From: a virus
Reading direction: 5' to 3' (one strand)
Virus genome (UHGV): UHGV-1360762
Length of the DNA: 25,018 nucleotides
Numbering within the stretch: the stretch's first letter is position 1; every line of letters starts with the position of its first letter. The position numbers and the translations under genes were made by a program. The notes beneath the pieces are model-generated. The model made no database searches and was not told the DNA's origin. It was given only the letters and a program-made list of their open reading frames with translations. Shown one piece after another: positions 7,997 to 10,455 of this stretch.

Positions 7997-8129
7997 TTTT
8001 TGGAACTCCTGGCTGATTAAGTACGTCGATGAGTCGTTTCCATCCGTCACGTAATTTACGGGTGATTCGTTCAAGTAAAGATTCGGAAGGGCAGCCAGCA
8101 ACAGGCCACCCTGCAATGGCATATTGCAT
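7989..8129 (-). CDS. cIII: cIII (FtsH inhibitor stabilising cII), lambda-like
   Basis: MQYAIAGWPVAGCPSESLLERITRKLRDGWKRLIDVLNQPGVPKNG is near-identical to recalled lambda cIII. Confidence 0.88.
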   Translation of the reverse strand: MQYAIAGWPVAGCPSESLLERITRKLRDGWKRLIDVLNQPGVPKNG

Positions 8130-8190
8130 GGTGTACTCCTTATTTATACATAACGAAAAACGCCTCGAGTGAAGCGTTATTGGTATGCAT

Positions 8191-8553: not shown

Positions 8554-8623
8554 ACGGATAGTCCTGGTATTGTTCCATCACATCCTGAGGATGCTCTTCG
8601 AACTCTTCAAATTCTTCTTCCAT
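8537..8623 (-). CDS. orf28-like acidic micro-ORF (28 aa, MEEEFEEFEEHPQDVMEQYQDYPYDYDY)
   Basis: Not in the track (under 60 aa). GAGGTG 4 nt upstream of ATG; overlaps the ral start as lambda orf28 does. Confidence 0.45.
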   Translation of the reverse strand: MEEEFEEFEEHPQDVMEQYQDYPYDYDY

Positions 8624-8631
8624 ATATCACC

Positions 8632-8931
8632 TCAAATAAGTGGTTTGCTGCCTAATTTCATTTTCTGGCGACCAACACAAGTCACCCCCATTTCACTGCG
8701 TGGCTTGCGGTAGTAAATACGGTTCTGTTTACGCTCGACTTCATCTGCCTTCTTGCAGAGAAGGCTTCCGAGTGATGCTGCTTTGTCTGCTCTGACGCAA
8801 CCAGAGAGCTTTAGCGCAATTTTTCGCGCCAGTCGCTGCTCTTGCATCGCCTGTTCACGTTGAGCCTGTCTGCGTGCTCTGCGGCGATTTCTGGCGTTAT
8901 CGTCAGCCAGATATGTAATGACTACTGTCAT
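8632..8931 (-). CDS. N: N-type transcription antiterminator with arginine-rich motif (phage-21-like)
   Basis: ARM NARNRRRARRQAQREQ near the N-terminus; C-terminal half resembles recalled phage 21 N (…KPRSEMGVTCVGRQK.KLGSKPLI); first gene downstream of pL/nutL; GGAGGT RBS. Confidence 0.85.
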   Translation of the reverse strand: MTVVITYLADDNARNRRRARRQAQREQAMQEQRLARKIALKLSGCVRADKAASLGSLLCKKADEVERKQNRIYYRKPRSEMGVTCVGRQKMKLGSKPLI

Positions 8932-9331
8932 GTTGACCTCCGATGAAACAACTTTGGAATTTTTTTTATTACAAAGTGGTTTCCTTCCCCGCCAATTAGA
9001 CGGGGATGGAAGAGCATTTATGAGCCTTCATGGACTCTGCTCGATCAGTTCTATTTAATTAATCTCTCAACTGAATGTAAGTATTCACATAAATCCTCCT
9101 ACCTCTTGTGCAGCTTTCTTGAATATGGTGGCGGCTGCATAACGCCTATGGAATTGACTTTGGCGATTGGATGGCCGGTGCTGAACTCCGGCTTACTGGT
9201 TAGAGCGCCCGCACTACCAGTGACGCTGTCTTGAGGCGCAGATTGGTTACTGCTTGCCATGAGCGCTGTTTATACATTGGTCGAGCATCAGCCTGCTCAT
9301 TCATCCAATCCCAAAGCCAACTACTCTTTGG

Positions 9332-9373
9332 TTCCCGCATTTCGGCGGGACAATCCCATCAATGTTAAAGAGC
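9332..9373 (-). promoter_or_regulatory. nutL: nutL (boxA GCTCTTTAACA and boxB hairpin TCCCGCCGAAATGCGGGA)
   Basis: Reverse complement of 9332-9373 reads GCTCTTTAACATTGATGGGATTGTCCCGCCGAAATGCGGGAA; boxA and boxB are identical to the nutR copy at 10462-10507. Confidence 0.8.
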
Positions 9374-9414
9374 CTGCCAATCTGTTCCGTTTGGCTACCA
9401 GCGTCCTGCTGATG

Positions 9415-9500
9415 GCTTAAATTTAAGATCTCTTTAATTAATGGTCAAGAGTATTTTTGAAGAAAACTTAAATTTTCTTTCGTAACTTAAGTTTGGCTTT
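9415..9500 (-). promoter_or_regulatory. OL operators and pL promoter (P22-type operator half-sites)
   Basis: ATTTAAGATCTCTTTAAT at 9421-9438 resembles P22 18-bp operators; minus-strand TTGACC (rc of 9443-9448) with downstream TAAAT-type -10; sits between the cI terminator and nutL. Confidence 0.6.
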
Positions 9501-9515
9501 GATTTTTAAAGGAAA

Positions 9516-9541
9516 TAAAAAAAGGGGCGAATGCCCCCTTA
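9516..9541 (-). terminator. Rho-independent terminator immediately 3' of the repressor gene
   Basis: AAAAAAAGGGGCGAATGCCCCCTT; on the minus strand GGGGGCATTCGCCCC followed by TTTTTTT. Confidence 0.75.
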
Positions 9542-10189
9542 TGGAAGGTTTGCTAGTTTTGCATCGACAACTACGCCGATGATTTTGCAGTTTCCGTTGA
9601 TCTCGATCATCGGATATTGTGGGTTAAGTGGTTTTAGAAACTTCCTGCCTGCATCAATAACTAACTTCTTGAAAGTTGCCTCGTTTTCTCCTTCGAGCTT
9701 TGCAACTACCAGTTTCCCGTTACGCGGCTCTACTTCAGGATCGACGAGTATTATCATTCCTTCAGGGATACTGAGACCGGCCGGAGCCGTCATTGAGTCT
9801 CCCTTCACGTCCAACCAAAACGAATCTTCTGAACAGTCTACGGTTGTATCGTACCAGTTATCTATTGCACGCTTATGATATGGTTCTACAGCTTCCATCC
9901 AGCATCCTGCGCTCACCCAGCTAATCAGAGGGTATGACCCTCTTGGATCATGCCTACTGTGATAGGCAATGTTTGAAAGACTTTCCTCTCCTTTCATCAG
10001 ATAGTCAGGGGAACACTTCAACGCATTAGCCAGGGCGAGAAGATTCTCTCCATTTGGCTCTGTCTCAGAGCGTTCCCACTGAGATATGGCAACATTAGAC
10101 ACGCCGACCATCTTTCCAAGTGCGGCCTGCCTGATCTTGAGTTCTTTTCTCCGAGCGCGAATGCGCTCTCCCATCAATTGAGTTTTCAT
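9539..10189 (-). CDS. cI: Prophage repressor, P22 C2-type (HTH N-domain, LexA-like autocleavage C-domain)
   Basis: 216-aa protein near-identical to recalled P22 C2 (…TQLMGERIRARRK.LKIRQAALGKMVGVSNVAISQWERSETEPNGENLLAL…). Confidence 0.95.
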   Translation of the reverse strand: MKTQLMGERIRARRKELKIRQAALGKMVGVSNVAISQWERSETEPNGENLLALANALKCSPDYLMKGEESLSNIAYHSRHDPRGSYPLISWVSAGCWMEAVEPYHKRAIDNWYDTTVDCSEDSFWLDVKGDSMTAPAGLSIPEGMIILVDPEVEPRNGKLVVAKLEGENEATFKKLVIDAGRKFLKPLNPQYPMIEINGNCKIIGVVVDAKLANLP

Positions 10190-10269: not shown

Positions 10270-10455
10270 ATGTACAAGAAAGATGTTATCGACCACTTCG
10301 GAACCCAGCGTGCTGTAGCTAAAGCGTTAGGCATTAGCGACGCAGCAGTCTCTCAGTGGAAGGAAGTCATCCCAGAGAAAGACGCCTATCGACTGGAAGT
10401 CGTTACAGCTGGCGCCCTGAAGTATCAAGAAAGCGCTTACCGCAAAGCGGCATAA
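10270..10455 (+). CDS. cro: Cro, P22-type
   Basis: 61-aa MYKKDVIDHFGTQRAVAKALGISDAAVSQWKEVIPEKDAYRLEVVTAGALKYQESAYRKAA matches recalled P22 Cro. Confidence 0.93.
   Translation: MYKKDVIDHFGTQRAVAKALGISDAAVSQWKEVIPEKDAYRLEVVTAGALKYQESAYRKAA

Follow-up and report, generated by a model that had tools for sequence, protein, structure and literature searches.

An invariant Shine-Dalgarno-led AUG-UGA start-stop within an optional cassette of a P22/HK620-like N leader

The pL-N leader of the immunity region

We analyzed a 25,018-nt stretch of the viral genome UHGV-1360762 (hereafter the window), which contains a P22/HK620-like immunity region. It carries a c2-type repressor gene (9539..10189, minus strand), cro (10270..10455, plus strand) and, on the minus strand, an ORF of 99 aa with the arginine-rich motif NARNRRRARRQ (8632..8931, from the list of open reading frames). 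The same gene is annotated as N in the CUS-3, HK620 and HK140 records, and its match to Pfam N_peptide is weak and below the cutoff. The N ATG (8931..8929) is preceded by the Shine-Dalgarno (SD) sequence CGGAGGT at 8942..8936. Between positions 8600 and 9600 the sole sigma-70-like site is a predicted pL promoter, TTGACC-17-TAAATT (9448..9420, minus strand), which sits just past the terminator of the repressor gene. Sequence comparison identifies CATCAGCAGGACGC, located downstream of this predicted promoter, as the motif that opens the lambda pL leader, and transcription probably begins near 9413, where the motif (C)ATCAGCAGGACGC is in common with lambda pL.

The leader contains nutL (9333..9373, minus strand), which is invariant in two leader alignments and is comprised of boxA GCTCTTTAACA (9373..9363), a boxA that is likewise annotated in the HK140 and mEpX2 records, and the boxB hairpin TCCCGC-CGAAAT-GCGGGA (9350..9333). 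A large leader stem, TTGGCTTTGG...CCAAAGTCAA (9154..9320, minus strand), is homologous by sequence comparison to the lambda N-leader stem GGCTTTGGGGTG...CACCACCAAAGC, with the flanks GGCTTTGGGG(T)G...CACC.CCAAAG common to both and a variable interior. The lambda counterpart of this stem is processed by RNase III. With a predicted pL, boxA and boxB, an N gene, and a lambda-homologous large stem between nutL and the N ribosome binding site, the region has the appearance of a lambda-type pL/N leader, and the likeness runs from the CATCAGCAGGACGC start through boxA/boxB and the GGCTTTGGGG...CCAAAG stem to the N SD. The two differ past the stem: in lambda, as in the basic form of the present leader, the N SD follows ~10 nt further on, whereas in the window a 207-nt cassette that carries the start-stop lies in between. 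No counterpart of the cassette was found in lambda on sequence comparison, and the suspicion that the cassette is homologous to the N leader or N start of lambda was rejected because the real lambda sequence gives only chance words of 7-10 nt. Only nutL and the stem architecture are common to the lambda and window leaders.

The interior of the stem appears as a replaceable filling. In the window this filling is ~150 nt long (~9311..9164, minus strand) and is 94-97% identical to a pL-leader segment of Klebsiella phage KO-TP1, where it lies downstream of the LexA-type repressor, and a further match is to intergenic sequence in the unrelated Jilinvirus vB_EcoM-ep3 (window 9164..9311, minus strand; L224:901-1064; L223:901-1038). 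At least five unrelated fillings use the same stem position in phages with the same N gene. The filling of L013 (Intestinirhabdus alba) contains a tRNA T-arm-like motif, GTGGGTTCGATTCTCAC, for which Rfam gives no match with E at or below 0.1. The stem filling of L095 holds ~16 tandem copies of the pentamer GTCAC and that of L070 has long poly-C tracts, and both suggest slippage-prone sequence in the N leader. In some cassette-free leaders (L020:1350-1504; Gally-type L060) an ORF spanning the stem ends in a TGA that overlaps the N start (ATGA). This overlap recalls translational coupling, but several variants have no start codon in frame and it is thus probably incidental. Farther along the pL operon, past N, Rfam detects the lambda cIII thermoregulator element (RF01804) over its full length (8084..8142 on the minus strand, 84 bits, E = 2e-20).

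An optional, non-coding cassette

In the basic leader the distance from boxA to the N ATG is 151 nt, and boxA, boxB and the long stem TTGGCTTTGGGG...CCAAAGTCAA are followed directly by TCATCGGAGGTCAACATG. The window instead has an optional cassette of 207 nt (8947..9153, minus strand), with the start-stop and four predicted hairpins, that is inserted exactly between CCAAAGTCAA and TCATCGGAGG. Alignment of leaders with and without the cassette gives identical junctions. Among 88 loci carrying the same N gene and nutL, which were collected via the N protein alone, 23 have the cassette and 65 (74%) lack it, and thus neither the cassette nor its start-stop is needed for N expression. The same combination of N and nutL is seen with at least 15 leader lengths, built by independent insertions in three slots, one within the stem, one behind boxB and one separating the stem from the N SD.

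Among deposited phages the cassette is present in CUS-3 and HK140, and it is found in 159 of 5426 complete E. coli genomes. A search of species-representative genomes via the N protein returned eight loci, none of which has the cassette. When we inspected 67 distinct contexts with enough flank, boxA was located upstream of the cassette in 66 and the pL start motif in 64, while the gene downstream was an N of the HK620/CUS-3 type in 60 contexts, an N of the P22 gene-24 type accompanied by a P22 boxB in four, and another gene in two. Judged from these surroundings, the cassette is a portable module specific to the N leader. Our literature search found no published description of the cassette or of a start-stop in an N leader.

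Other inserts occupy the same leader. In L034, L054 and six similar loci the slot between the stem and the N SD holds, instead of the cassette, a hydrophobic ORF of 39 aa (MLDIMTNPILGGLVTTFAICFGFTIWSEVDDWMWERKNK) that has a duplicated N-type SD ahead of it and no Pfam match. In L023, L028 and L067 an insertion of ~250 nt lies immediately after boxB and opens with AGGAGGTGCCGTAATGGTGCACTAA. Behind a strong SD and a 7-nt spacer it has an ORF of 3 codons (M V H stop), and the insertion, which appears highly structured, is without a match in Rfam. Mini-ORFs led by an SD may recur among N-leader inserts.

The cassette is non-coding, as indels of 1-2 nt between its alleles break the frames on both strands. 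An upstream ORF on the same strand has 53 aa in the window and 37 aa in CUS-3 (both allele A) and 41 aa in HK140 (allele B). In allele A its stop is a TAG that overlaps the SD and is lost in one metagenome copy (L195), and in allele B its stop is the TGA of the start-stop itself. Since the frame and the stop of this ORF shift between alleles and its start codon is missing in several leader variants, we rejected protein coding on this strand. Coding on the opposite strand was likewise rejected, because an antisense ORF of 129-134 aa does not stay open in the window and is disrupted by indels that separate the alleles. RefSeq/PGAP lists 'hypothetical proteins' of 129-134 aa antisense to the N leader in UTI89-like prophages (WP_011478232.1 and WP_175068158.1; L004:1033-1422 and L006:1033-1437, plus strand, equivalent to ~8940..9330 of the window), and these are probably spurious calls. 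No promoter or intrinsic terminator was found on either strand of the cassette, and neither 8947..9153 nor the homologous cassettes gave a match in Rfam 15 at E cutoffs of 1 or 0.1. The only Rfam match in the region is the cIII thermometer, which lies outside the cassette.

The start-stop site, its invariant island and predicted RNA structure

At the start-stop site the minus strand reads CACAAGAGGT-AGGAGG-ATTT-ATG-TGA-ATAC. The SD-like AGGAGG (9100..9095) is at a functional distance from the start codon, with a 4-nt spacer (ATTT, 9094..9091), and the ATG (9090..9088) directly abuts the TGA (9087..9085). A first-pass annotation had described this arrangement, including the 4-nt spacer, and placed it about 150 nt upstream of the N start inside the N leader. 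The sequence bears out the arrangement, and the measured distance of 159 nt from the start-stop ATG to the N ATG agrees with the estimate. The location in the leader holds in that the sole promoter-like site and the lambda pL opening motif put the start-stop within the pL/N leader, ~323 nt downstream of the predicted transcript start and with N downstream, but it needs the qualification that the site belongs to an optional cassette without which 65 of the 88 same-N loci do.

AGGAGG-N3-8-ATG-stop occurs once in the window against 0.037 expected over both strands, and 3.7% of 300 dinucleotide shuffles of the window contain at least one such site. Taken separately, AGGAGG (14 copies) and ATG-stop (34 against 36.8 expected) are both at chance level. 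What is unusual is therefore only the combination of an SD with an ATG-stop, and neither part alone. Two other readings of the same letters were dropped. A prfB-like +1 frameshift site, in which an SD lies near a codon followed by UGA, was set aside by reasoning only, as an AUG in the P site has no slippery re-pairing, and a CRP half-site (TGTGA) was set aside by inspection only, as the second half-site is absent.

The start-stop ATG also overlaps a GTG at 9088..9086, a point that is absent from the first-pass annotation. This GTG has a 6-nt spacer from the SD and opens a 9-codon ORF, GTG AAT ACT TAC ATT CAG TTG AGA GAT TAA (9059..9088, minus strand), with the product MNTYIQLRD in allele A. 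The corresponding products are MNA (3 codons) in allele B and MNAYIQF (7 codons) in allele C, so that neither the sequence nor the length of the peptide (3-9 codons) is conserved. The ATG-TGA claimed at the outset is thus present, but the site is an AUGUGA (9090..9085), at which a pure start-stop is one of two predicted outcomes (PMC9841429). Earlier work showed that AUGUGA placed behind UAAGGAGG with a 4-nt spacer, an aligned spacing of 12/14, directs initiation at both AUG and GUG, and that the A creating the UGA permits RF2-dependent termination-reinitiation onto the GUG (PMC9841429). As spacers of 2-8 nt after UAAGGAGG correspond there to a DtoStart of 10-16 (PMC9841429), the 4-nt spacer in the window has the aligned spacing 12/14. 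By analogy, ribosomes at this site should split between the immediate start-stop and the GUG micro-ORF.

Alleles A and B are ~68% identical overall, and their longest identical run is AGGAGGATTTATGTGAAT, an island of 18 nt (9083..9100, minus strand) that contains the SD, the spacer, the ATG and the TGA (P = 0.044 by column shuffling). The island is still the longest invariant run when allele C (L168) is added (P = 0.0056) and then the P22-type allele B' (P = 0.0015). These values are only moderately small, the shuffling ignores relatedness, and there are ~3-4 effective alleles, which recombine. Allele C was recovered independently of the island and has the same island between two flanks that both differ. 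Across 33 unique cassette sequences (104 loci), varying columns number 0 of 18 in the island versus 102 of 183 in the rest of the cassette, and rare variants number 0 in the island, where ~3.5 were expected, versus 36 elsewhere. In scans anchored on the flanks only, the island was intact in 61 of 61 viral-contig matches, in 18 of 18 true metagenome matches and in all 81 true left-half matches. Diverged cassettes without the island were found neither among the collected loci (nhmmer) nor in four flank-anchored scans (three of viral contigs, one of metagenomes), the extra matches being unrelated coding sequence. Conservation of SD-ATG-TGA in homologous leaders, which the first-pass annotation had named as a check, is thus upheld in every cassette copy, including those found without using the island. 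With zero variation in these alignments, the SD, AUG and UGA cannot be told apart as targets of selection. An AU-rich block, TTAATTAAAT (9053..9062, minus strand), is also invariant in the alignment.

Natural recombinants between the alleles, seen on comparing window positions 8931..9153 with L005 and L006, combine an A left half with a B right half, with the crossover at the island. A second recombinant crossover lies near the hairpin Hc described below, and no recombinant of a B left half with an A right half was seen. These crossovers are consistent with short-homology exchange at conserved blocks.

RNAalifold predicts four hairpins in the cassette. In Ha (9109..9139, minus strand) UGCAGC (9139..9134) pairs with GCUGCA (9114..9109), the stem being invariant while the loop varies in sequence and length. 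Hb (9012..9042, minus strand) pairs GAGCA with UGCUC, Hc (8987..9005, minus strand) reads CCCCGTC-TAATT-GGCGGGG, and H3 (8945..8983, minus strand), which lies immediately upstream of the N SD, pairs GAAACCACTTTG with CAAAGTTGTTTC. Hb, Hc and H3 show one compensatory change each; that in Hb is G-C to A-U in allele C and that in H3 is C-G to U-A in the P22-type copies. A role for Hc as an intrinsic terminator was rejected since no U-run follows the hairpin. The window cassette is predicted to fold better than shuffled controls (z = -3.0).

We scored ribosome binding with a crude, RBS-calculator-like measure using a context of +/-35 nt. The start-stop AUG scored -4.4 and the overlapping GUG -5.3 kcal/mol, compared with +2.3 for N, +1.2 for cro and -1.1 for the erf-like gene. 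The description of the SD as strong is supported to the extent that this score beats the N, cro and replication-gene starts, and by it the start-stop would be the strongest predicted local ribosome binding site among those compared in the immunity region. In full-leader partition functions the SD is unpaired with a probability of 0.2-0.6, similar to the N ribosome binding site. In allele A the island has a complement in the 3' arm of Hb together with its flank (AUAAAUGCUCUU), and in the full-leader fold of this allele the SD and AUG are predicted to pair with AUAAAU.CUCUU on the 3' side of Hb with a probability of 0.5-0.9, a pairing that would mask the site. For alleles B, B' and C the prediction instead places the island in small local hairpins. 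The predicted exposure of the start-stop thus differs between alleles, and because the pairing partners also differ, a conserved helix does not explain the invariance of the island.

Possible roles and comparison with known systems

The motif and its position, the anatomy of the cassette and its optional and mobile nature, the invariance of the island, the lack of a conserved frame and the predicted strength of the ribosome binding site are direct observations. As their explanation we tentatively prefer, with somewhat less than even confidence, that the start-stop is a selectively kept, peptide-less ribosome-loading site that forms the core of an exchangeable leader cassette and acts in cis on the N mRNA. 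Ribosome binding in vivo, termination-reinitiation, and the direction and size of an effect on N are what we infer. For such elements the first-pass annotation had proposed ribosome holding and a modulation of downstream translation or mRNA stability, which here would be putative effects. A 30S or 70S ribosome would bind AGGAGG and initiate at the AUG or at the overlapping GUG. From the AUG it would terminate immediately at the UGA via RF2 and might reinitiate on the GUG, while from the GUG it would terminate after 3-9 codons, and the outcome would be repeated brief ribosome occupancy on an otherwise naked stretch of leader. Our preferred guess is that a leader occupied in this way, lengthened and presumably processed by RNase III, would be protected from RNase E or Rho, and/or that the ribosomes would affect how the hairpins Hb, Hc and H3 fold between the start-stop and the N SD, with the net effect that N output would be tuned and not switched. 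Direct occlusion of the N start, or coupling to it by scanning, is unlikely because the start-stop lies 159 nt away. Any benefit of the cassette is conditional, because 74% of the loci with the same N are without it. We consider it unlikely that the SD-AUGUGA is a functional device for ribosome parking and termination-reinitiation, carried on the portable 207-nt cassette, with which lambdoid phages could by recombination re-tune the amount of N antiterminator and how stably it is made, and so shift the timing of the lysis-lysogeny decision.

The alternative to which we give the most weight, although we regard it as doubtful, is that the site is a functionless relic, either a leftover gene start or a chance motif in a mosaic cassette, with the 18-nt identity stemming from a shared recombination joint or gene-conversion tract and not from selection for ribosome binding. 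In recombinants the switch from an A left half to a B right half does fall exactly at the island, the CUS-3 record labels the whole interval 'bsq5; boundary sequence', and the cassette is dispensable, being missing in 65 of 88 loci. Moreover, the comparison involves just 3-4 effective alleles with a pairwise P of only 0.044, and AGGAGG and ATG-stop are each at chance frequency. A mere joint fits less well with the island being the longest invariant run over three to four alleles (P 0.006-0.0015), with its having no rare variants where ~3.5 would be expected from the rest of the cassette, or with allele C retaining it between two differing flanks, and searches of phages, viral contigs and metagenomes found no cassette homologue with a longer ORF at this ATG. 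Should the element prove inert, it would teach that a strong SD can stay invariant in a mosaic joint without having a function. It seems less probable still that the island is kept as a recognition element for RNA pairing or factor binding and not for translation. The candidates here are the invariant AUGCUCUU, which might form an anti-SD-like switch with Hb, or a factor such as CsrA, which recognizes GGA motifs. AGGAG.AU is complementary to AUGCUCUU, allele A would extend this pairing to a 12-bp helix with one mismatch at a predicted probability of 0.5-0.9, and the sole change in the AUGCUCUU block (C to U, allele C) preserves a G-U pair. However, for alleles B, B' and C the folding gives no such helix, and RNAalifold favors Hb, which has a true compensatory change. 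By our estimate a 7-of-8 complement with G-U pairs is expected by chance within 200 nt, and as neither side varies no covariation signal is possible.

Two further explanations also involve translation. The relevant event may be translation of the GUG micro-ORF or termination of a leader ORF upstream, with the AUG-UGA being an error-correcting partner; ribosomes would reach the GUG directly or by termination-reinitiation and translate 3-9 codons, or an upstream leader ORF would end here. We think this improbable, in spite of the optimal 6-nt spacer of the GUG, its best crude score (-5.3) and the fact that AUGUGA with A4 is the type of site shown to feed a GUG frame (PMC9841429), since the ORF in this frame has 9, 3 or 7 codons of differing sequence. 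The upstream ORF of 37-53 codons in allele A that ends at the TAG overlapping the SD, and that of 41 codons in allele B that ends at the start-stop TGA, would fit termination at the site, but this ORF shifts frame between alleles, is without a start codon in several variants, and has lost the TAG in L195. Highly improbable, in our judgment, is a bar-like minigene, in which abortive translation would sequester tRNA or ribosomes and thereby act in trans on host translation in early infection, as the lambda bar minigenes do in hosts deficient in peptidyl-tRNA hydrolase (pth). Such a role would agree with a strong SD and a 1-3-codon ORF on the pL transcript, and the GUG frame of allele B does have three sense codons (GUG AAU GCA) before UAA. 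The AUG frame, however, has no sense codon after the initiator and thus no elongator tRNA to sequester, bar toxicity is known only from pth-defective hosts and is generally seen as incidental, and the site has no sequence similarity to the bar regions (AUG AUA UAA/UGA).

Among phages, the nearest precedent for an SD-led mini-ORF on an early transcript is provided by the lambda bar minigenes. These minigenes (barI and barII) have one sense codon (AUA) after the AUG and are known through their toxicity in pth hosts, in which peptidyl-tRNA accumulates, and barII is carried on the pL operon, the operon to which the start-stop also belongs. Both cases present a tiny SD-led ORF without a useful product on a lambdoid early transcript, but the AUG frame of the start-stop has zero sense codons where bar has one, and the sequences are not similar. 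A bar-type order of SD, AUG, one or a few sense codons and stop is thus not what lies at the site, and only the GUG frame of allele B resembles a minigene of three sense codons. The minigene mechanism is summarized in PMC2490762.

The ambiguous AUGUGA/GUGUGA sites studied in narQ and in reporters (PMC9841429) share with the present site the AUGUGA hexamer, a strong SD and a 4-nt spacer, and the window likewise has the overlap of AUG and GUG with the A that makes UGA, at a spacing of ~12/14. They differ in that the GUG frame of the published cases encodes a real protein, whereas a functional coding sequence is not found in the GUG frame here, which has 9, 3 or 7 unconserved codons depending on the allele. 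In plants, the NIP5;1 minimal uORF AUGUAA (Tanaka et al. 2016, as cited in bioRxiv 10.1101/520783) is described in that account as a 5'-leader start-stop at which ribosome stalling regulates the downstream ORF and mRNA stability. As described there, this uORF is eukaryotic, depends on scanning for initiation and responds to boron, and it is thus an analogy only.

The site also resembles the Start-Stops that Meydan et al. (2019) identified in E. coli by Ribo-RET, which comprise 14 ribosome-bound cases located out of frame inside genes (bioRxiv 10.1101/520783). Toeprints were obtained at the yecJ and hslR start-stops, and removal of the yecJ start-stop AUG raised output of the host ORF by ~16%, a small effect and the only one measured in E. 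coli (bioRxiv 10.1101/520783). These sites and the phage element share an SD-like sequence, a start codon abutting a stop, the impossibility of a peptide, and a proposed role in cis on a neighboring ORF. The E. coli sites, however, are intragenic and their occupancy is shown, whereas the phage element is a predicted ribosome binding site that a mobile cassette places within a long 5' leader, 159 nt ahead of its gene. Bacterial start-stops have only recently been recognized and their effects so far are small or unclear, and the phage site adds one that is conserved in nature and lies in a regulatory leader that is among the best understood in biology (pL-nutL-N). As natural isogenic leaders exist with and without the cassette, they provide an unusually clean system for the effect of a peptide-less ribosome binding site on a downstream gene. 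The N leader is also a hot spot for the swapping of small non-coding or micro-coding modules, which may be an overlooked means of lysis-lysogeny tuning. If the unlikely reading of a ribosome-parking device on a portable cassette is true, this would be the first demonstrated phage start-stop with a regulatory role, and also the first start-stop known to be passed as a module among leaders that differ in N specificity.
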